Assembly (NCBI GenBank): GCA_016930235.1
Contig: JAFGHI010000047.1
Span: forward strand, 86,215 to 150,214
Reading direction: 5' to 3'
Length of the DNA: 64,000 nt
Source: Candidatus Omnitrophota bacterium
GTDB taxonomy: Bacteria > Omnitrophota > Omnitrophia > Omnitrophales > Aquincolibacteriaceae
Shown one piece after another: positions 2,960 through 64,000 of this stretch. How positions within the stretch are numbered: position 1 is the stretch's first letter; each line of letters opens with the position of its first letter. The notes below the pieces were generated by a model. That model was given only the letters and a program-made list of their open reading frames with translations, did not search any database and was not told the DNA's origin. Made by a program: the position numbers and the translations under genes.

Positions 2960-3266
2960 ACTCTGTCCCTTTTTGCTGATGATTTAATTTTACTATAGGA
3001 TTATATGAGAACGCTGTTCTGATTTAAAACCTCATATCCATATGTCTATCAATAAGTTATGATAATATCCTCCGGTTAAATGCTCTATTATATAATTCTT
3101 AGCGGGATGGAGAGAATACATACGCGAAGCTATTATATCACAAACCACCTCTTATGGAGGATTCGGCAAACAGACTCTTCTCCAGCCAACTATTCCAGTC
3201 TTTCTCAAGATAGTCCAAGTTTCGTCCAAGACCTTGAATAATAGCATCATGAATGGTTTTCCCCGA

Positions 3267-4475
3267 TTAAATATTTTTTAAAAATGAAAGAAGAGGATAA
3301 AAACGAAATTTATCTTTTATATACAGAACAAAAGATAAAGATTGCTCATAGGCAAGAGGCACAAACGACGGAGGAATTTTCTCTGCCGCCAAGGGATCAT
3401 TCAAAATTTCAAAAGGCAGATAGGATTGACTTTTATAAACTTGCGCTAAGTTCAGAAAATACCGACTGTCATACAACGAAACCCCACGGATCCGATCTTC
3501 CTCGTAACGAGCCAACCCCTCATGGAACCAAAAAGGGACCGGATATCCTGCTGATAGATCATTGATGACAGAATGTGTATATTCATGTGCCAACACAGCC
3601 TTGAATTGTTTTTCATTTTCAAGCCCACTTGAAAAAGGTATTTTGATCCTTCCATCATTTAAGGCAGCTGCCCAATCCGGGCCGCTATGGATCTGCTCAA
3701 ATTTCATTTGGTCAACAAGCACAAAAACCAATCGATGTTTAATCCAATACTCAAAATCTTCCCCCACAAAATCCGATACCTCCTGAATCAAATCAAAGAT
3801 CCTCTTTGGATCGACGCCCATCAAATCTTCCTGAAACCTCAAAATCCAGTTACCATGCCTAATTTCTCGTGTTTGTTTTTCGATTTCCATCTCCCTAAAA
3901 AACTGCATCTTTTGTTCCCGGAAACTCTCATCCGGATTTCCTTTCAAACCTTCTTCCAGCAATCCGTTGGCTTCCTGAGTCGAGCCTTCCATGCGGTAGA
4001 CAATTTGAGAGAGCATAATTTTTAATTTGGAATTTTGAGGATCATAGCGAAGAGCTTTTTCAAAGTCAGCGCGGGCCTTTTTTAAGTCGTTAAGCCGATA
4101 AGCTTCATCCCCCCGCCAAGCGAGCACCGATGCCAGACTTTTATTAATATTTTCGTTTTCCGGTTCGAGCTTCCTGGCTTTTTGAAGGAATTTTTCAGCC
4201 GTCGTCCACTTTTGTTCATCAGCTTTCAAAAGTCCGCAATTATGGTAAATAATCGCAAGCTGTTCACGATAGTTATCCGAGGGGTTTTTGCGGTAAAAAG
4301 ATTCCCACTCTTTGACTAAAGCGCAGGAATCATCCGCTGCAAAAGGCTTAGTAGCCCTTCCTAAGAGCGAGGAAATCAGAAAGAGAACTATACTGATAGT
4401 AAGGATTGTTTCTTTTTTCATCCCCGATTGTCGAAGCTTTTTTTTCATCATAATTATGCCCTGGGAGAACAACAA
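3267..4475 (-). CDS. secreted or membrane-anchored TPR protein with C-terminal HExxH zincin-like domain (putative metallopeptidase)
   Basis: N-terminal hydrophobic signal/anchor (ILTISIVLFLISSLLG), TPR-like repeats, then AHEYTHSV...FWFHEGLARYEE (HExxH plus downstream E). The start may be the internal ATG at 4451 or 4421; the ORF overlaps the upstream MBL gene end. Confidence 0.5.
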   Translation of the reverse strand: MLFSQGIIMMKKKLRQSGMKKETILTISIVLFLISSLLGRATKPFAADDSCALVKEWESFYRKNPSDNYREQLAIIYHNCGLLKADEQKWTTAEKFLQKARKLEPENENINKSLASVLAWRGDEAYRLNDLKKARADFEKALRYDPQNSKLKIMLSQIVYRMEGSTQEANGLLEEGLKGNPDESFREQKMQFFREMEIEKQTREIRHGNWILRFQEDLMGVDPKRIFDLIQEVSDFVGEDFEYWIKHRLVFVLVDQMKFEQIHSGPDWAAALNDGRIKIPFSSGLENEKQFKAVLAHEYTHSVINDLSAGYPVPFWFHEGLARYEEDRIRGVSLYDSRYFLNLAQVYKSQSYLPFEILNDPLAAEKIPPSFVPLAYEQSLSFVLYIKDKFRFYPLLSFLKNI

Positions 4476-42693: not shown

Positions 42694-43323
42694 TTAAAGC
42701 GGTTGAACACAAGCTTCGTCCACTTGGACTGACACCGATTGCATTAATAAATCAAGCGAGATGACCAAACGGCAGTGCCGATCCTTGCGGACGATATACC
42801 CTTCCGTTCCTTTAAAAGGACCTGTTGAAATATAAACCCGGGCGCCTTCTTTTAAGTAAGGGAACGGATCCAAAGGTATTTCCTCCTCGACAAATTTTCG
42901 AAGACTTACAATATCCTTCTCGGGAACTTCGATCGGATTCGACGGCTTAGGCCCTACAAATCGAACAGCGCCGGCAGTATTTAGCACCTGCCATCTTTCC
43001 TTGAAAGGAATACGAACGAAAAGATACCCTTTGAACAAAGGCTCCTCGATCAATTTTTTGCGATCGGACCATTGCCGTGAAATTCGTCTCATGGGCAGAA
43101 AGGTTTCGATCCCTTTCTTTTGTAATTCCCGATCCGTTAACTTTTCATGCCGGCTCTTGGCATAAAGTGCAAACCAACGTACCTGGTTCCACTTCTTCTT
43201 GATTCCCTCATCCCAAGAAACAGCATTCCAAGATTCTTGCGACTCTTGAATCATGGGATAATCCCCCGTGAAGACAGTTAGAAAACACGGAAATTTATAC
43301 TCATTCTCCCGCGTCTTCCTCAA
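42694..43323 (-). CDS. NusG-family paralog (NGN + KOW), operon-specific transcription antiterminator of the RfaH/UpxY/LoaP type
   Basis: NGN: VRWFALYAKSRHEKLTDRELQKKGIETFLPM...EEPLFKGYLFVRIPF. KOW: EGARVYISTGPFKGTEGYIVRKD. About 40 N-terminal residues fall outside the NGN fold. The ORF-track start is TTG at 43323; an internal ATG lies at about 43254 (MIQESQ). Confidence 0.75.
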   Translation of the reverse strand: MRKTRENEYKFPCFLTVFTGDYPMIQESQESWNAVSWDEGIKKKWNQVRWFALYAKSRHEKLTDRELQKKGIETFLPMRRISRQWSDRKKLIEEPLFKGYLFVRIPFKERWQVLNTAGAVRFVGPKPSNPIEVPEKDIVSLRKFVEEEIPLDPFPYLKEGARVYISTGPFKGTEGYIVRKDRHCRLVISLDLLMQSVSVQVDEACVQPL

Positions 43324-54988: not shown

Positions 54989-57900
54989 TTACGCCATTTG
55001 GGCGAGGTATTCGGCAACCTGCTGCTGGGTGTAGATCCACTCCAGCGCATCACGGGTGATTTCAAGGCTGGTTCCGTTATACCGAACGGCTCCGCCAAAG
55101 ACTTCGGGAATCTTCTCCAAAAGCTCCGCTGTTATTGCTGATTCGGAAGCAAAAACAGAAGACAACACCATCGCTACAGGAAATGCCGAAATCGACCGGA
55201 TATCCCGTAAATGGACAAACCGTAAGAGATACTCAGCAGAAACGTCATACGAGGGAATCCCGTAGACCAAAGCATTTGGGTTCTTCTCAAAATATCTCGC
55301 AAGATGAAGGGCCGTCGTTTGAGGATCTAAGACGATCATTTTGGCGATGCCGGATTGACGAACCGTCTTTAAAAATTCCGCGTGCGCGGGATTCTCAACA
55401 TCCCGCGGTGTGACAAAAACACGGATATCCGCTTGGACACGGGACCCATAATCCATCCTGAGTTTTTGAATCTTCTCCAAATAGGTCAAAAGCCATGCTT
55501 TGATTTGTTCGAGCTCATCACTCGTCTCATCTAAAGGAAACCCGAAGGCAAAATTGAGTTTTTCTGCGGGATGCTCTGAAAGAAACTGGTCATAGAGATT
55601 AAAGACTTCTGCCATCTTCCCTTGGACAAAATCCTCAGTCTTAGCCTCATCCCAGGCATGGACAACTTCACCAGCAACAACCTCCCCCGATTGCCTCAGG
55701 ATGTATTCGGGATTCAGAGCTTCAACGCGTACCGCCTCACGAACTGCATCGAAATTGCTACGAGTCTGATCTGCCAAAGCCCCGGCTGCTTCTTCGGCCA
55801 AGACAGTTTCAATTCCCGCTAAAGCATTCAAGGCCTGATGAGCGAGATCTTTCAAATCAAACCTGAGTGGTTGGGACATCAACCGCAATTCTGATTTTCC
55901 TTTCAATTCGCGCAATTCGCGGCTAATTAAAACCTGCGCTATTCCTAAGACCCGAAACTCAATATTTTTATCATGCTCTGTTATATCAACGATCGGAGAT
56001 TTTGAAAAAACCCGCTTGACGGTTTTAAGTTGTTCCAAGAGTTCCTCGAGATTCAAATCCTCCTCAAACCGAATCAACGCCCCGTCAACTTTTGCTTTTC
56101 GCAAGTCCTCTAAATTTATCGAGTCAGGATTTGCTATGGCCGGATAAGACGTTCGTAAATAATACTTACTATAAACGTCAAGATGCTGCTGAACGATTTT
56201 AAGGATTTCTGACCGCGTTAACGCAGCATTCTCGCCGGTTTGAAGTGCCTGGATCATTTCATCAATGAATTGCTTAGGCATTGCTAACGAATCCTCTTCC
56301 CGGAGTTCCGAGCGCTTAGCATCTCTTGTCTTCATTTTGATTGTCCAAGCAATCGGATTTTCTCCATCATAAAGGGTACCCACTTCAACATTTTCAAATC
56401 CATGCCCTTCCATTAGAGCCTGAATACCCGCTTCATCTTGAAACTTTTCAGCCGCCTGAATCGTATCCTTCCACCCGAGCTCCTTGATATCCCAGTAGGT
56501 TTTTGATTTAGCTGCCAACTCAATGGCCTTGTCTCCGTTTTCTGTCATCACACTTGCCAACTGATCTAAAATGGCTACGCCGATTTCATCACCTTGAAAC
56601 TCACCCACTGAAACTTTCAATTGCTCAGCTATTTTTTGTCTCAGCGTTTCAATGCGCTCAGCGATTTGCTTTTTTAGCAAATTCCGCCTACGAACACTCT
56701 TTGCGCTTGTCGTACTGAAAGATTGAACCAGCCCAAAAAGACCGCTCTCATCAATCCACGACTTCTGCTTAAGCCCTCGAACCATTGTCTGGACACGTTC
56801 CGAAAGAGGATGGGTGATCACAAACATAAGGATTCCGCCGGGCGCAAGGACGCGATCAATCTCAGCCAAGGATTTATTCATATCCGTAAACTCTAAGGCC
56901 TTTGTTCCGATGACCACATCAAAAACCTCGTCGCCAAAAGTCATATTTTCCGCTGACATTTGCTTAAATGTAACTGTCTCGGATCCCGTGAATTGTCTGG
57001 GTGAAAACTTGGCAAAATCAATCCCTGTCAATTCAAAATCTGCTGATAAACCGCGAGCCGCTTCCAGGGCATCTAAATCCGGCCCTGTCCCTATCTCTAG
57101 AACTCTCGCATGGGGCTCTGCTTGTTTGAGCGAAGAGAAAAATTCCTCCCAATAAGAATTAATCTGAGCGCTGCCCTCACGATTGGCCCCGGCCTGCTCA
57201 TCTCTCTTCTTCCAAAAATAATCCCACATGAGCTTACGTGACTGCGACAACATCGAAACGGTTTGTTCACCTTTCATCTGAAGAATACCCGCTGTCGAAT
57301 TGCGCAGCTCAGATCTTTCGATTTCATCCGAGCGAAAATCGGGGCGGCGGGCATCGAATCTTCGACTGAGACGAACTGCCGCTTTCAACATGGGAAAAAC
57401 ATCCCGGAAATTCGTATTAGAACCCCTTCCCGAATCAATCCAGGCAATCCCTCTTTGAGTAAATTCGTAGGGCGTATATTTCAAGAAGGCCAAAAGCAAT
57501 TCGAGGTCAAATGCGTATCCCGTCTCCGTAAGATTTCCCCGCAATATTTCGTAGATGTTTCTCGGCAGAACCTTGAGCGCAATCTGGGTATCGCTTACGT
57601 TACGAAGTGCCGGGGCTATCTTATGGACGGCACCGACAAAAGTTTCGCTCCGGAGATTAGCATACGGGCTTCTCCCCAATGTAACAGAATCGATAAGGTG
57701 CCGTGAACCTATCGCCATCCCGGCCCCTTCCTCAATAAGGGGCTTGAGAACAATTCCGATCTGCCTTAAATCAATACTGAGATCAGCATCCGTATAAATA
57801 AGGTAATGAACCCCCATCTCCAAAAGTTTATCCAACCCCAAATGGATCGCACCGCCCTTACGGCTTTGATTTGCATAGGCCGCGCCTTTTTCTCTCGCGA

Positions 57901-60900
57901 GAAAATAGACGAAAACTTTTTTATTCAATAATGTTGGGTATTCACTTCTCAAAATTTCTTCCGCTTTCCGGCCGATAAAATGCGGGTCTCCGTCATCAAC
58001 AATCGCAAGCCGGTAATCGAGAACATCCGAATATTCTCCGAATAAATCATCCAGCTGAGCTAGTTTTACCCTTAAGAAATCCTCGCCCAATTTATGCTGC
58101 GAGGGCTTTAAAATCCTGTAATGTTCATTAAACATAGCAAAGGTAATGCCGATTAAAACTGGACCCTCTAAATCGCCGTGTTGTTTTTGAACTCTTATTT
58201 CCTCTGCCAGCGCAGCGATATAGTCTTTGGATAATTTGACCTTGCCGTTAACAGCCCGCAGCTCAGGACCCGTCAAATCGACTGTAAACGGGTTCAAAAG
58301 ATCCGGTGCGATTCTTAGTTCGGAGCGTTTCTGGGGCTGGTGATACACATAAGTTCCATCCGTAGTCTCCTGAATGCCCGGGAAATGGTCTTTATCTTCG
58401 ATCATTTCCTGAAGCACTCCGCGAATAGGGATAATCCTGTCTGCTTGCTCCTCTGGGCCGCTGCTCAAAACCGCATCAGAATTTCCTTCGATTACCTTCA
58501 TCTCGCCGTTTAATTTGCCCATAACATGAACGAGATTTCTCCACCACCAACTCCTATTGAGTCTCATTTGGATTTCATCCGCCGACAAAGCCCTTCCGGG
58601 TTTTAAAGCAAGCGTGCGGTAAAATGTCCGTTTGACTCCCCACATAATTTTATTGACCAAAATTTGACCTTCTGAAGATGTATCTTGCGTCTCACTTTCA
58701 ATTATACGATCCAGCTCCCGGATCTTCTCCCGCGCAAGAGGATCTAAAAAGATTGCGTTAACAATCTTTTCCCAGCTGTTTGTCATCAATTCCATGAAGC
58801 GGCCCCAAGTGATCAGCTGCAGCCACAACACAAAACTCCTCACCTTTTGGCTTTCAGAATGCAGGCGCGCTAAATAACCAATCCCGACAACCCCGAGGGC
58901 GGCAAAAAGAAGAAAATAAGGAAATTCGGCCTGCGCTAATAGAAGCCTCAATTCCGAGCGTTGATCCGCAACTTTTGTCATGATTTTCACGCGGCGGATA
59001 GCCTCAAGTACCGGCTTCCTTTGGTTTGGCCATTGCCACAGCCCGGGCTTCCTGGCCAGAAGATTGAACTTCATCCTCAACCTTGCAACATGCTGCTGGA
59101 GCGATTGATATTGGAGGTTCTCCTGGATCGCCTCCATGTAATAAGCGCGGTAAAGGAGATCCAGAAGCTCATAAGCTTCCCGGAACTGTCCTTCCTGAGC
59201 CAGGGCTTCGACTTCCAAAGCTGCGCGTCCGGTTTCTTCCAGACGAATCCGGTGGGCAAAGAAATCGGCGCGGTGTTTGACTCCTCCCTTTTTGGATTCT
59301 ATATCACGAAGTCTGTCTTTTAAGATTTGTCCAGCTCCTTCGAGAAGACCGAGTTCCTCGGTTATCTTCATCCTGCTCGTTTGAACCGCATCTTCAATTT
59401 TTGCCAGGGCCGTGACGATATTTTCCCCTGCTTTTCTTTTATGATCCTTTGTCCCCTTATTCAAAAGACCGCCCTCGCCGCCGCGCGTATGAAGGACCCA
59501 GCCAACCATTTCCGCAACTTCCTCTTTTAAATATTCAGGAAGATCGGGCCCGTATTCCCGGAAAATATCGGTGATATAATCAATCACAACGACGCGGTTA
59601 AGGATCTGCTCATAGTCCCGGTCCTGATTCACGAGCGTATGCACCTGACTTCTTAGGGCCGTATCCAAATCTTCAAGATGAATTTCCGTCGGACGAAGCA
59701 CATACGTGACAGAGCCGTCAGGCAATGTCTCTTTGACCCAACGATCGGATTTGATTATAACTTCGCTTTCCTCACCCTCCGCCAGCTTCGGCTTCTCAAA
59801 AATCCGGAACTGATGATAATCATAAACCGTGGATACCTGACCGTGGTGTCCGACAACTTCGATTTTAAGAACGTTGGCCCGGCTAATGGCCTTTCTCCAT
59901 CTCCAAGCAAATTGCCTCGCTAAACGCAGATAACTTAAATAAGCCCCGCTCATCAGAAGGGTTTCAATCGCAGTTTCATTGAGTGACTCCATTTCAAGGT
60001 GGGTCTTGGCTTGTAGCAATTGGGTTTTGACGCGCGCAAGATGAAGAGCGACAAACTGCCGGTTAAGATCCGTAAGCCGTTTAAAATTATCATCCTGATA
60101 AGCAAAATCCCAACCTTGGTTCAAGGATTTGATTTGCACAAGCATTTCTGCTGACTTTTTTCTTAGCGCTTTCGCTTTAGCCTGAATATTTAACGCCGGA
60201 TTCTTAGAAATCGCTTCGATTTCCGATAAAAGCTTCTGCTCCTCTTCAAACCGCGGGCTTCCGGCTTCTGGGCGGATGCGGACCGAAAACGCTTCCAATC
60301 TTTGAGCGTAATTGCGAATCTCCCCGAGTTTTTCCGCCGCCTTCTCACCCTTCCCATTATCGCGAAAACGGCGGTACTGGCTAAAGAGCACGATCAATTG
60401 CCGGGCATACTTAAACATTTCGGTTGCCCGCGCCCTTGCTTGTTCGCGTAATTCATACGCGTAATCAATCTGCCGCTGAATCGCTTCCTGTGCACCCTGA
60501 TTCTGATCAGCGCGCAGTTCCGAGCGCCGTCTTTGGCCATCCTCCGCAAGCAGCCCGATTTCCCGGTAGAGAAAGTTAAGGTGGTTCCCGCTTGCCCCTT
60601 TTTTGTCTATTACCGATTGCGGGACTTGATGAGTACTCAAAGTCTCAATCATCTTTTGCATCATGTTAGGATAACGGTAATAATAGATATTGCCCGCCAC
60701 AAGAATCAAAAGTTTCAATAAGCGATGATGGGAAAACTCTTCAAAAGGCAAATCCAGCCGGTTAATCAAGAATGTTTGGTAATCAAGAATAACTTGTTTT
60801 TCGACATTGCGGATCCTCCTCCAAACCTCCTTTTCCGGCATCTTTTTTAAATCGTTAAGTGATTCTATCTTCAGTGCTTTATGCGTCCAAGGATCGCGGT

Positions 60901-63900
60901 AATGGATTGCTGATTTGGGGTCATCCAAATAATCCGTTAAAATACCGGCCATTTCTTCGGCCTTTTCCGGAGGAAATCCGTCAATCGTAAACAGGGTTTC
61001 GAAAATGCCCTGGCGTTCACCCTTGGCAAAAAACTCAAATTCTCCGAGATCAAGATCTAACGCCCGATCCCCTTTCATCACTTCGATCGCCAATCGCGGG
61101 ATGACAATTTTGAGCAAGGCCTCATGAGCCTTCTCAACTTGTCCTTGTTCGGCATATACTTCCGCGATTTGCTTCCAAATCCCAAAAGGGAGCACGCCTC
61201 CTTCTCGAGCCGCATCTCTGTAATTTTCCAAGGCTTCTTCATAAAGCTCAATCGCCTCCTCCCTTTTGCCTTGTAAGCGCTTGATGGTTGCCAGTCTAAA
61301 AAGGGATCGCCCCATAAGACCAAAAACAAATTGGACCCCGGGAGCCGGTTCTATCCGATAGTTGGGATATTGGACTTTAAAAGACTCCACGGCTTCGACC
61401 GTGCCCGCAATCGCCTTTTTCGTCTCTTCCTCAACCTTCTCCCAGTTTACTCCGATTCGGTGAAGAGCCCACTTTGCCCATCCCCGGACCCTGGTATCTG
61501 TTTCATACGGGTCTGAAAGGACATCGAGTAAAATATTGACGGCACTGGGGTACCTCAAAAGCCCCATCCCTTTGGCCGCTTCCGCCCGGACACGGTGATA
61601 TTCCCCCTTACTCTGTAAGGGAACGCCCAATAATCCGACAATCGTTTCTTTTTCCTCCCCCGTTTCATATCTCGCCTGCCCTAAAAGAAAGGCGGCATTC
61701 CTTCTTCGCATTCTGTTCTCATCACCTTTTTTCACGAGGTCTTGTTTGGCTTGCTTGATATTCTCTTCGGTAATTGTTGAAGAATAAATCTCACTAAAAA
61801 TGGCCCTCTTCAAAGCCACAAGATACGGAAGGCTAATCTGATCATTATTCCCTCTCATCCTGCGGTAAATTTCCCGGATGACTCTTCGAACGCTTTCGTT
61901 CTTATGCGGATCCAAGGATCCTTGATTTAACCCGTCATAAATTGCGCGGACCGACTCGTTTAATTGATCTAATGTACTAGCCCGCGCCAGACCGGACGAA
62001 AGATTGTAAACAACGGCCGCAAGTTCATTGCGCTTGTATGTCGTTTCTTCGTTAAGCCCAGCAACAACCTCTGACAGGTAAACCCTCCCGGTTTGTCCCG
62101 GCACATTTTCCAATTCTCCGATAGCGAGAAGAATTTGTTCGTGTTTATCTAAAAGTTGGCGCTCTCTTGGATCCGGAGCATCAGGATGTTCCTGACTCCA
62201 AACTTTTTTTTGAGCCCGCACAAACACGGGATCCCGCTCAATTTCAAGGCGTAGGCGCTTTAAATCCTCTAATCGATTGGCCTCCTTCAGGTGATCCAAA
62301 ACATACCAAAGATTTCTTGTGGTATGCCCCGTAATTCCGTCAACAAGATGCCATTCTTCTTGGTACTGGGTTTCAGCTTGAGAAATCATGTTGGAAAATT
62401 CATGACGCGCAGTGTATGAAGCGCCGATATTGGCAGAACTATAAGGGACAAACAGAATCCCGATTTCATTTAAAAATTCAACGGCCCTGGGAGTAGCAGC
62501 GTTAGGATTGGCCTCCATCACAATTTTCACTTCGCTGGTCCTGAACCGCATCGCTTGTGAAGCCGTAAACGTGTAAGGAGGTGACGTAAGAAAAAGGATG
62601 TCGGTTGGGGGACTGAATATCTTCTCTTCCCCCTCCTGCGAGGATAAATATTGAACTCCGTGGCTGTTGAAAGCATCCGCCAAATCTCGAAAATCGGGTT
62701 TCTGACCATGATTAATCCTGCGCGACGCCTCGCGGATCAAGTTTCTGGGGAGATTACCTTCCTCGGAAAAAACCGCATCGTCTGCGTCCAAAACACCCGC
62801 AAACCGTATCCCGACTGAAGCTGGATAATCATGCAGGATCACGCTCGCGATCTCTGAAGCGATTTCGCCAAATCCATAGAAGCTGACATTAAAGGATTCC
62901 GGTTCTTTGCCTCCAAAATAGTTGTTTTGAACATAAGGATGCCGGACCACCGCCAGGGCCGCTGCGACAGGCCCCACACCGTGAACTTTCCACTGTTTTT
63001 TGGGAATTCCGTGTAAAGCCTCCTCTGTGACACCAACAGCCGGAGGCAAAAACATTTTAGAAATGGGTTGCCCTTTATTTCCCCACCTTTGTTGGTCATA
63101 ACCAAAAGCCCCGAATGTGACGTAATCCATATCTTCGGGTGACATGCGTGTACCGGGTGAAGCAATGTATTTTGAGCCCAGAATATTGACGCTGACCCAT
63201 GACTTGGCAAGAGTGTCGAGGACTTTGCGTTTGTCGGCGCCCGGTCTGGCCACAACCGCCCCGTGCGCCCCGTCAAAAAAACTGTGCCCTCGGTGTGATG
63301 AATCTGAGGTTTCGGCCTGTTTTGGAATTAGCGCGAATTCGTTGGCGACTTTTCTATCAAAATCTTTACTGCCACTTGTTTCTCGGACATCAAAATAATC
63401 AACCGGTCCTTCCGATAAAATAATTTCAAGGGATTCGATGCCGGCCCTGCCCCCATAGATTGCGAGCATCGCATCAAAATCTTTTGAGTAAGTGTAATAA
63501 ATCCGGTAAGGTTTTCCTTTGGGTTTAACCCGCTTCAGAAGCCTCTTCATAAAAGGAACCGGCATCAAAGTCAGCGTTACAGGAACTTTTTGCGCTATCC
63601 GGGCCGGGTCATTAAAATTGCTCTCTTCCCAGATAATCATGTTCCACAACTGGAAAAGATCCGGCCGCTTCCTGTCGCTAAAAACACCTTGGAGTCTCCT
63701 CAGGGCCCTGTAAAGTTCATACTCCCTGACCAGCCAATTCCAAAATTCCCTGAAAAGGTTGGCCGATTTCACTGATTGGAGCCGCCCGGCGCTGGGAGTT
63801 CCTTCATTAGGAGATTTTTCTGCCTGTCTTAATTCGGCGCGGCGTGATTCTTGCGGATACATCCAGGCAACAATTTCCCGCATAAAAGAAGGCAGATCTT

Positions 63901-64000
63901 TTTGATGCCGAAGTATGTAATCTTGCCAATTTTTGGGGAAATCATTCCACGGAAGGATATGCTGTTTAATATCCACAATATAGCGCTTGGCGGATGTCCC
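54989..64000 (-). CDS. giant multidomain protein (at least 2995 aa; ORF still open at window end, N-terminus not in window). Order: ELFV-dehydrogenase-like domain, HEAT/TPR repeats, about 900-aa coiled-coil-like region, hydrophobic hairpin, GT2 glycosyltransferase domain, class I SAM methyltransferase domain, C-terminal domain of unknown function
   Basis: GDH-like: YRIYYTYSKDFD..., VSFYGFGEIASEIASVILHDYPASVGIRFAGVLDADDAVF (Rossmann), MEANPNAATPRAVEFLNEIGILFVPYSSANIGASYTARHEFSNM (about 62300..63560). HEAT: NRMRRRNAAFLLGQARYETG...AVNILLDVLSDPYETDTRVRGWAKWALHRIG (about 61350..61720). TM hairpin FPYFLLFAALGVVGIGYLARL (58865..58930). GT2: DYRLAIVDDGDP...HYLIYTDADLS...GSR (about 57350..58050). MT: ARVLEIGTGPDLDALEAARGL...FDVVIGTKALEF...LAPGGILMFVI (about 56750..57130). 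The first in-window codon is GTG at 63976 and the frame remains open through 64000. Confidence 0.85.
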   Translation of the reverse strand, partial: GTSAKRYIVDIKQHILPWNDFPKNWQDYILRHQKDLPSFMREIVAWMYPQESRRAELRQAEKSPNEGTPSAGRLQSVKSANLFREFWNWLVREYELYRALRRLQGVFSDRKRPDLFQLWNMIIWEESNFNDPARIAQKVPVTLTLMPVPFMKRLLKRVKPKGKPYRIYYTYSKDFDAMLAIYGGRAGIESLEIILSEGPVDYFDVRETSGSKDFDRKVANEFALIPKQAETSDSSHRGHSFFDGAHGAVVARPGADKRKVLDTLAKSWVSVNILGSKYIASPGTRMSPEDMDYVTFGAFGYDQQRWGNKGQPISKMFLPPAVGVTEEALHGIPKKQWKVHGVGPVAAALAVVRHPYVQNNYFGGKEPESFNVSFYGFGEIASEIASVILHDYPASVGIRFAGVLDADDAVFSEEGNLPRNLIREASRRINHGQKPDFRDLADAFNSHGVQYLSSQEGEEKIFSPPTDILFLTSPPYTFTASQAMRFRTSEVKIVMEANPNAATPRAVEFLNEIGILFVPYSSANIGASYTARHEFSNMISQAETQYQEEWHLVDGITGHTTRNLWYVLDHLKEANRLEDLKRLRLEIERDPVFVRAQKKVWSQEHPDAPDPRERQLLDKHEQILLAIGELENVPGQTGRVYLSEVVAGLNEETTYKRNELAAVVYNLSSGLARASTLDQLNESVRAIYDGLNQGSLDPHKNESVRRVIREIYRRMRGNNDQISLPYLVALKRAIFSEIYSSTITEENIKQAKQDLVKKGDENRMRRRNAAFLLGQARYETGEEKETIVGLLGVPLQSKGEYHRVRAEAAKGMGLLRYPSAVNILLDVLSDPYETDTRVRGWAKWALHRIGVNWEKVEEETKKAIAGTVEAVESFKVQYPNYRIEPAPGVQFVFGLMGRSLFRLATIKRLQGKREEAIELYEEALENYRDAAREGGVLPFGIWKQIAEVYAEQGQVEKAHEALLKIVIPRLAIEVMKGDRALDLDLGEFEFFAKGERQGIFETLFTIDGFPPEKAEEMAGILTDYLDDPKSAIHYRDPWTHKALKIESLNDLKKMPEKEVWRRIRNVEKQVILDYQTFLINRLDLPFEEFSHHRLLKLLILVAGNIYYYRYPNMMQKMIETLSTHQVPQSVIDKKGASGNHLNFLYREIGLLAEDGQRRRSELRADQNQGAQEAIQRQIDYAYELREQARARATEMFKYARQLIVLFSQYRRFRDNGKGEKAAEKLGEIRNYAQRLEAFSVRIRPEAGSPRFEEEQKLLSEIEAISKNPALNIQAKAKALRKKSAEMLVQIKSLNQGWDFAYQDDNFKRLTDLNRQFVALHLARVKTQLLQAKTHLEMESLNETAIETLLMSGAYLSYLRLARQFAWRWRKAISRANVLKIEVVGHHGQVSTVYDYHQFRIFEKPKLAEGEESEVIIKSDRWVKETLPDGSVTYVLRPTEIHLEDLDTALRSQVHTLVNQDRDYEQILNRVVVIDYITDIFREYGPDLPEYLKEEVAEMVGWVLHTRGGEGGLLNKGTKDHKRKAGENIVTALAKIEDAVQTSRMKITEELGLLEGAGQILKDRLRDIESKKGGVKHRADFFAHRIRLEETGRAALEVEALAQEGQFREAYELLDLLYRAYYMEAIQENLQYQSLQQHVARLRMKFNLLARKPGLWQWPNQRKPVLEAIRRVKIMTKVADQRSELRLLLAQAEFPYFLLFAALGVVGIGYLARLHSESQKVRSFVLWLQLITWGRFMELMTNSWEKIVNAIFLDPLAREKIRELDRIIESETQDTSSEGQILVNKIMWGVKRTFYRTLALKPGRALSADEIQMRLNRSWWWRNLVHVMGKLNGEMKVIEGNSDAVLSSGPEEQADRIIPIRGVLQEMIEDKDHFPGIQETTDGTYVYHQPQKRSELRIAPDLLNPFTVDLTGPELRAVNGKVKLSKDYIAALAEEIRVQKQHGDLEGPVLIGITFAMFNEHYRILKPSQHKLGEDFLRVKLAQLDDLFGEYSDVLDYRLAIVDDGDPHFIGRKAEEILRSEYPTLLNKKVFVYFLAREKGAAYANQSRKGGAIHLGLDKLLEMGVHYLIYTDADLSIDLRQIGIVLKPLIEEGAGMAIGSRHLIDSVTLGRSPYANLRSETFVGAVHKIAPALRNVSDTQIALKVLPRNIYEILRGNLTETGYAFDLELLLAFLKYTPYEFTQRGIAWIDSGRGSNTNFRDVFPMLKAAVRLSRRFDARRPDFRSDEIERSELRNSTAGILQMKGEQTVSMLSQSRKLMWDYFWKKRDEQAGANREGSAQINSYWEEFFSSLKQAEPHARVLEIGTGPDLDALEAARGLSADFELTGIDFAKFSPRQFTGSETVTFKQMSAENMTFGDEVFDVVIGTKALEFTDMNKSLAEIDRVLAPGGILMFVITHPLSERVQTMVRGLKQKSWIDESGLFGLVQSFSTTSAKSVRRRNLLKKQIAERIETLRQKIAEQLKVSVGEFQGDEIGVAILDQLASVMTENGDKAIELAAKSKTYWDIKELGWKDTIQAAEKFQDEAGIQALMEGHGFENVEVGTLYDGENPIAWTIKMKTRDAKRSELREEDSLAMPKQFIDEMIQALQTGENAALTRSEILKIVQQHLDVYSKYYLRTSYPAIANPDSINLEDLRKAKVDGALIRFEEDLNLEELLEQLKTVKRVFSKSPIVDITEHDKNIEFRVLGIAQVLISRELRELKGKSELRLMSQPLRFDLKDLAHQALNALAGIETVLAEEAAGALADQTRSNFDAVREAVRVEALNPEYILRQSGEVVAGEVVHAWDEAKTEDFVQGKMAEVFNLYDQFLSEHPAEKLNFAFGFPLDETSDELEQIKAWLLTYLEKIQKLRMDYGSRVQADIRVFVTPRDVENPAHAEFLKTVRQSGIAKMIVLDPQTTALHLARYFEKNPNALVYGIPSYDVSAEYLLRFVHLRDIRSISAFPVAMVLSSVFASESAITAELLEKIPEVFGGAVRYNGTSLEITRDALEWIYTQQQVAEYLAQMA

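Follow-up and report, generated by a model that had tools for sequence, protein, structure and literature searches.

A putative pseudo-dehydrogenase module and recurrent junction motifs in a giant Omnitrophota protein

Dehydrogenases of the ELFV family combine a substrate-binding and oligomerisation domain (domain I) with a Rossmann-type domain (domain II). The large glutamate dehydrogenases (GDHs) of the L-GDH180 type are active and retain their catalytic residues. An ELFV subunit that is inactive is known from Thermus thermophilus, in which GdhA plays a regulatory role in a hetero-hexamer (PMC9570180). Giant proteins of Omnitrophota have also been described, and their cleavage points were stated to be unknown (West-Roberts et al. 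2023, preprint 10.1101/2023.11.21.568195). Here we report on a dehydrogenase-like module within a giant open reading frame (ORF) that stays open up to one end of a 64,000-nucleotide stretch of the Candidatus Omnitrophota contig JAFGHI010000047.1 (the whole stretch is called the window below). The region of about residues 85–575 of this ORF is probably a catalytically dead member of the ELFV fold, a pseudo-dehydrogenase, that has been conserved as a non-catalytic module.

Catalytic positions and fold of the module

In GDHs the catalytic lysine lies in the motif GG(G/A)K and the catalytic aspartate in P-x-x-D-(I/M)-G. The E. coli GdhA motifs, read directly, are GPYK92GG, TFK116NA, GGGK128GG, PAGD168IG, GSGNVA, EGANMP, and NAGGVATS380. 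All five catalytic and substrate-binding positions are replaced in the window copy: K92 by E189, K116 by S227, K128 by H238, D168 by G275, and S380, the specificity serine, by A523 (E. coli GdhA numbering for the residues lost; codons in Table 1). The aspartate site reads S-P-G-T, as compared with G-P-D-M in relatives that retain the motifs. Placement of H238 on the lysine column and of G275 on the aspartate column was obtained independently by MAFFT alignment with relatives having canonical motifs and by a HMMER profile alignment with the GDH of PDB entry 8qf0. In the latter the consensus of the motif-lost relatives (class B, see below) has Gah falling on GAK and pg on PD. Note that hmmalign placed E. 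coli GdhA on the family profile in domain II only, and the domain I positions are those of the 8qf0 alignment together with motif comparison. K249 or K251 (PGADKRK, just past the lysine motif) was considered as a stand-in catalytic lysine and rejected, as K249 is also conserved in the motif-retaining relatives, alongside the canonical lysine. Given the residues present, we infer that the module is incapable of oxidative deamination. At the cofactor site the window copy keeps both the glycine-rich turn GxGxx(G/A) and the acidic residue that follows the second strand, positions at which E. coli GdhA has GSGNVA...ASD.

An earlier reading made from the letters of the DNA (the sequence-only reading) had reported the lack of a catalytic lysine in a domain placed at 62300–63560. 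The strings it quoted are present in the minus-strand translation: FFDGAHGAVVARPG at residues 233–246 (window 63239–63280), YGFGEIAS at 367–374, EANPNAAT at 488–495, and SANIGAS at 514–520. Its remark on the lysine was an understatement, as the column holds H238 and none of the catalytic and substrate-binding residues is left, with no Lys/Asp pair at the catalytic positions (H238 and G275). Its interval does cover residues of about 140–560 of the domain, which is slightly larger (Table 1). The two Pfam models it proposed for checking the family assignment behaved differently. PF00208 matched residues 355–533 above its cut-off (28.3 bits versus 23.4; E=1.7e-6), whereas PF02812 gave no match even at E<=10 when run against residues 1–620 or 101–350 of the window protein, and the N-terminal ELFV domain is recognised via the family profile and the fold.

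The family itself was found by an exhaustive HMMER scan that took in 1.84 billion protein representatives and gave 32 relatives, 19 of them with E<=1e-10, spanning query residues of about 85–575. Most are segments of very long proteins (up to 4822 residues). A word-indexed homologue search had no match, either with the sequence or with a five-sequence alignment. The family profile is the MAFFT alignment of 23 domains (alignment A1), which includes the relatives with canonical motifs; the locus scan used the five-sequence alignment A2 in place of A1, which proved too divergent. When the relatives were scanned one by one, PF00208 matched 16 of 23 and PF02812 matched 6 of 23. Against PDB sequences the window sequence alone gave weak GDH matches (E=0.02) that were confined to the NAD domain. 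With the 23-domain profile the GDH matches extended over both domains (E~1e-24), and those to leucine, phenylalanine, and tryptophan dehydrogenases had E-values of 1e-10 to 1e-12. AlphaFold2 produced a confident model from the 23-sequence alignment, with a predicted local distance difference test score (pLDDT) of 87.8 and a predicted template modeling score of 0.87. From the single sequence of residues 101–590 no confident model was obtained (pLDDT 34.5). With the alignment-based model as the Foldseek query, the top 50 PDB matches were all of the GDH family, the best having E~1e-18 and target-normalised TM-scores of 0.67–0.70. Because the Pfam, profile-versus-PDB, AlphaFold2, and Foldseek results agree, the module as modeled is a complete two-domain ELFV fold having both the substrate/oligomerisation domain I and the Rossmann-type domain II. 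The similarity to the ELFV family proposed from the letters, and the comparison of a structure model with GDH that had been suggested as its check, are both borne out by these data.

Relatives of the module and its possible role

The motif table split cleanly into 7 motif-retaining domains (class A, the sister branch) and 16 motif-lost domains (class B, which includes the window copy), and a neighbor-joining tree separates the two classes. Class A keeps GKGG(I/C)R, (D/A)KNP, DGGKT, AGPDMGM, QGFGDVG, EGANNA, and ANGGG. In class B the lysine column holds His in 8 of 16 members and otherwise Phe, Tyr, Ala, or Cys; the aspartate column has Gly in 14 of 16, as against Asp in all seven of class A. 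Class B has near-invariant residues of its own (P491 in 15 of 16, I517 in 13 of 16), and its conserved features also include the Gly at the aspartate site, N516, and an L-P-R-x-L-I-R motif. Column statistics indicate that the class B substitutions are concerted, the losses occurring together. Identity among the relatives is 20–43%. Those having names in the databases are called ‘hypothetical’ or ‘HEAT repeat’ and belong to Candidatus Omnitrophica/Omnitrophota (below, handles beginning with P denote proteins and those beginning with L denote loci; P0005 and P0006 are Candidatus Omnitrophica). Judged by its motifs, class B is a previously unannotated, seemingly catalytically dead branch of the ELFV family.

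HEAT_2 repeats lie downstream of the domain in both classes. In class B the resulting cassette of about 1,100 residues either makes up a free-standing gene or forms one of the cassettes in giant multi-enzyme ORFs. Window residues 51–1150 align as one unit to an ORF from an Omnitrophica metagenome-assembled genome (L002, 3339–4417), to P0001, P0002, and P0003, and to others. Free-standing complete genes of the cassette extent are P0004 (1284 residues) and P0008 (1090 residues). Among genomes the best match was that of Omnitrophica bacterium RIFCSPLOWO2_12_FULL_44_17 (39% identity), which has an ORF of more than 7181 residues. Directly upstream of the cassette P0001 has an HPr domain (residues 1064–1134), and upstream of it P0011 has a LOG/lysine-decarboxylase-like domain (1358–1437). 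In class A, P0023 has GGDEF domains fused to the cassette (1496–1614) and P0019 a kinase domain of the Kdo/WaaP type (3196–3251). A segment of about 50 residues that follows the pseudo-dehydrogenase (residues 569–619; window 62120–62270, minus strand) is 55% identical to residues 509–559 of P0030, a giant protein of 4822 residues that has RSELR motifs and lacks the dehydrogenase-like domain.

A pseudo-enzyme or binding module was one of the explanations offered by the sequence-only reading, and it is the best supported one, as the functional residues are lost while the fold and the branch-specific residues are kept. The module would have lost dehydrogenase chemistry and been retained as a structural part. 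The most likely role is that of a hub for oligomerisation or scaffolding, given that ELFV enzymes use domain I for assembly and that HEAT/TPR solenoids offer surfaces to which proteins bind. The hub would serve to organise the giant protein's enzyme modules (a glycosyltransferase family 2 (GT2)-like module and a methyltransferase). Binding of NAD(P)(H) may persist as an extra in the sub-branch of the window copy, as its GxGxxA turn and acidic residue are intact. Some points weigh against a purely structural, dead module. The loss of activity is read from residues only, and His238, shared by half of class B (8 of 16), could in principle serve as acid or base. The cleft residues E488, N516, and G236 are still conserved, which may reflect ligand binding rather than pure scaffolding. 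Moreover, about half of class B has a degenerate glycine-rich turn (it is destroyed in P0007, P0008, P0010, P0011, P0016, P0017, P0024, and P0032), and thus nucleotide binding is not a general property of the class.

It is possible, if rather unlikely, that the module, no longer converting substrate but still binding a dinucleotide, serves as a sensor of NAD(P)(H) or another ligand and signals redox or metabolic state to the HEAT solenoid and the enzyme modules, a view that partly overlaps the pseudo-dehydrogenase reading. The retained G368–A373 turn and D397 of the window copy, the GxGxx(A/G/S) kept by its closest relatives (P0002–P0006), the signalling and regulatory fusions in relatives (HPr in P0001, GGDEF in class A P0023), and the precedent of T. 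thermophilus GdhA as an inactive regulatory subunit all fit a sensor. Loss of the turn in the eight proteins listed above does not, nor do the changes of EGANN to EAxPN and of NGGG to NIGx, which affect the cleft on its nicotinamide side in almost every class B member. A re-purposed catalyst, with His238 replacing the lysine and a different substrate, had also been raised in the sequence-only reading and is improbable, as the candidate histidine is not conserved. Half of class B, including the window copy and its closest relatives, has His at this position and the branch has conserved cleft residues of its own (G275, P491, N516, and I517), but the remaining members have Phe, Tyr, Ala, or Cys there. 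Moreover, the general-base aspartate, both carboxylate-binding lysines, and the specificity serine are all lost, and about half of the branch has a degenerate nucleotide turn. Still less probable is a decaying relic under no selection within a fused gene. The loss of all functional residues and the high divergence (20–43% identity) would suit a relic, whereas the intact frame of at least 3003 codons, the fold and branch-specific positions kept by 16 divergent class B members, the confident AlphaFold2 model, and the conservation of the cassette as a unit, also as free-standing genes, would not. Finally, mis-alignment, which the sequence-only reading had allowed for, together with a chance match or a generic Rossmann fold having no real ELFV substrate domain, can be dismissed with near certainty. 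The window sequence alone does give E=0.02 in the NAD domain only, PF02812 is unmatched, and the single-sequence pLDDT is 34, but the profile match spans both domains at E~1e-24, the motif-retaining relatives bridge the alignment, and the predicted structure agrees with both alignments. We therefore retain the conserved pseudo-dehydrogenase module as the preferred reading.

Junction motifs and the giant ORF

The giant-ORF frame has no in-frame stop from the GTG at 63976 to the window end, giving an intact run of at least 3003 codons, and the residues GTSAKRYI are encoded ahead of that GTG (window 63977–64000, minus strand). Because the frame lacks a stop up to the window edge, the gene is probably 5'-truncated there and the true protein longer than 2995 residues. 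Hence, the description of the module as the N-terminal part of the giant protein, given in the sequence-only reading, holds for the visible part only. The open frame together with the RAELR junction at residues 46–50 indicates that the gene start is probably outside the window and that at least one further cassette probably lies upstream of the visible part. Looking up the giant protein by exact sequence gave no match, as expected if its true start is outside the window, and JGI metagenomes contained no exact copy of a 60-nucleotide pattern taken from the window edge. The Pfam scan found ELFV_dehydrog, HEAT_2, TPR, a weak GT2 match, and an S-adenosylmethionine (SAM) methyltransferase along the ORF. 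In PDB sequence searches the HEAT/TPR part gave weak TPR-repeat matches alone (E>=0.006) and the module following it gave no match. The ORF is thus of the kind described for Omnitrophota giant proteins: very long, tiled with unrelated enzyme domains, and provided with HEAT/TPR scaffolding. A single transmembrane helix is predicted in the visible protein (residues 1685–1705; window 58862–58924, minus strand); it adjoins the RSELR at residues 1673–1677, and cytoplasmic-type enzyme modules lie on either side.

A short peptide, [RK]-[SA]-E-[LIVM]-R, recurs along this ORF (Table 1). Seven copies are present versus 0.09 expected from shuffles, and none is found in the 16,361 residues of the other window ORFs. 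Across seven giant ORFs (those of L001, L002, L003, and L005 are among the carriers) there are 55 copies, and their flanks are not conserved. Normal-size ORFs of the same loci have none, save one match in L004 that lies in an antisense, stop-to-stop frame, and neither do the free-standing cassette proteins. A DNA-level repeat is ruled out, as the copies use different codons; since the codons vary, the constraint acts on the peptide. The copies fall at module boundaries in several proteins. The C-terminal module of the window ORF has its homologue at the C-terminus of P0002, again after a motif copy (3941), and cassettes have been shuffled: window residues 1156–1677 are homologous to P0001 553–1020, which lies upstream of the GDH cassette in that protein. 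In P0030 the copies bracket whole enzymes, a formyltransferase (586 to 951), an acyltransferase (3138 to 3456), and several methyltransferases. Another lineage (L010/L011, ORF >6500 residues; P0011; P0017) is without the RSELR-type motif and carries G-[TA]-R-L. In L011 (2–19516) 12 copies were observed versus 0.58 expected, the recurrent form being G-[TA]-R-L(A). One copy immediately precedes the first helix of the pseudo-dehydrogenase cassette, at the site taken by RSE[IL]R in P0002 and P0003.

Tentatively, and with doubt leaning against it, these giant ORFs could be bacterial polyproteins, or strings of cassettes having a dedicated junction signal for separation by a lineage-specific protease or other machinery. 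The junction peptides are lineage-specific and sharply defined, as protease sites would look. Cleavage at R-[SA]-E-[LIV]-R may free the pseudo-dehydrogenase and HEAT region as a protein of about 1,100 residues, equivalent to the free-standing homologues. Against cleavage, one RSELR lies inside the P0001 pseudo-dehydrogenase (residues 1413–1417, L001), in a variable surface insertion between domains I and II. A cut at residue 1413 would nick the domain, which speaks against every copy separating independent proteins. In addition, no protease has been identified for the junction motifs. Term searches of 10.64898/2026.06.07.730766 and 10.1101/2023.11.21.568195 found no mention of a recurrent junction motif, and a literature search for ‘RSELR’ returned the R package varSelRF alone.

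The rest of the window holds ordinary bacterial genes and, downstream of the giant ORF and on the same (minus) strand, a large glycan-biosynthesis cluster at about 23000–43400. The cluster encodes several GT4 glycosyltransferases, some fused to methyltransferases (707–1002 residues), an ABC exporter, and a NusG-family paralogue (42694–43323). Considered alongside the GT2-like module and the methyltransferase of the giant ORF, this cluster suggests a link to cell-envelope glycans. Searches of a phage collection (megablast) and a plasmid collection (tblastn) gave no match.

Table 1 Positions of the giant ORF, its modules, motifs, and key codons in the window
Feature	Window position	Residues	Strand	Remark
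Giant ORF	54989..63976		minus	2995 residues counted from GTG at 63976; open frame extends to 64000
RAELR	63827..63841	46-50	minus	Upstream of cassette
Whole cassette	60527..63826	51-1150	minus	Pseudo-dehydrogenase, then HEAT/TPR solenoid; bounded by two junction motifs
Pseudo-dehydrogenase module	62252..63724	~85-575	minus	N-terminal helical extension, ELFV domain I, Rossmann-type domain II
Glu189 codon	63410..63412	189	minus	Side-chain-carboxylate-binding Lys column (E. coli K92, motif GPxKGG)
Ser227 codon	63296..63298	227	minus	Alpha-carboxylate-binding Lys column (E. coli K116, motif T-F-K-N-A)
His238 codon	63263..63265	238	minus	Catalytic Lys column (E. coli GdhA K128, motif GGGK); from alignments and motif table
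Gly275 codon	63152..63154	275	minus	Catalytic Asp column (E. coli GdhA D168)
Glycine-rich turn (GxGxxA)	62858..62875	G368-F-G-E-I-A373	minus	Retained in window copy
Acidic residue	62786-62788	D397	minus	End of next strand; retained in window copy
Altered cleft motifs	62408..62515	E488-A-N-P-N492; N516-I-G-A-S-Y-T-A523	minus	For EGANN and for NxGGVxxS, respectively
HEAT_2		752-838	minus	Pfam; within cassette
TPR		890-955	minus	Pfam; within cassette
RSELR	60512..60526	1151-1155	minus	Cassette end; equals L002 4425 and P0003 1925
RSELR	58946..58960	1673-1677	minus	Just before predicted transmembrane helix
RSELR	58313..58327	1884-1888	minus	Ahead of GT2-like module
RSELR	57302..57316	2221-2225	minus	Ahead of SAM-methyltransferase module
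SAM-methyltransferase module		2269-2388	minus	Pfam match (Pfam scan)
RSELR	56300..56314	2555-2559	minus	Motif scan
KSELR	55883..55897	2694-2698	minus	Ahead of C-terminal module

Significance and comparison with known systems

Classes A and B form a natural pair for study of how a dehydrogenase turns into a structural or regulatory part. PF00208 matches in Omnitrophota giant genes should not be counted as glutamate or leucine dehydrogenase capacity. The junction motifs are potentially more important than the pseudo-dehydrogenase module itself. If they are processing sites, the question of one chain versus many products becomes testable by proteomics for giant bacterial proteins, and the polyprotein reading, if true, would supply the cleavage points that West-Roberts et al. 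called missing.

The module differs from the ELFV dehydrogenases (PF00208 plus PF02812; PDB 1euz, 8qf0, 4fcc, and the leucine dehydrogenase 7vid) in the replacement of all five functional residues, in its lack of a PF02812 match, in having an N-terminal helical extension of about 50 residues and a HEAT/TPR tail, and in being embedded in a protein of about 3,000 residues or more. T. thermophilus GdhA (PDB 3aoe) is a free subunit of about 420 residues that has an active paralogue as partner and senses leucine, whereas the window module is part of a giant protein, in which it is joined to HEAT repeats, and no active partner was identified. Its structural similarity to the 180-kDa L-GDH180 (PDB 7a1d) is lower than that to small GDHs, and Bac_GDH (PF05088) had no match in the Pfam scan of the giant ORF. 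Term searches found no mention of ELFV, PF00208, or pseudo- or inactive domains in 10.64898/2026.06.07.730766, nor of dehydrogenase in 10.1101/2023.11.21.568195. At about 3,000 residues the window ORF is short relative to the giants of 10,000 residues or more of the former report. Like the Omnitrophota giant ‘multi-enzyme metabolic cluster’ proteins (Nielsen & Lui 2026, 10.64898/2026.06.07.730766; West-Roberts et al. 2023, 10.1101/2023.11.21.568195), it is a long ORF of unrelated enzyme domains having internal HEAT/TPR scaffolding, and the closest named relatives of its module are proteins from Omnitrophica/Omnitrophota metagenome-assembled genomes.

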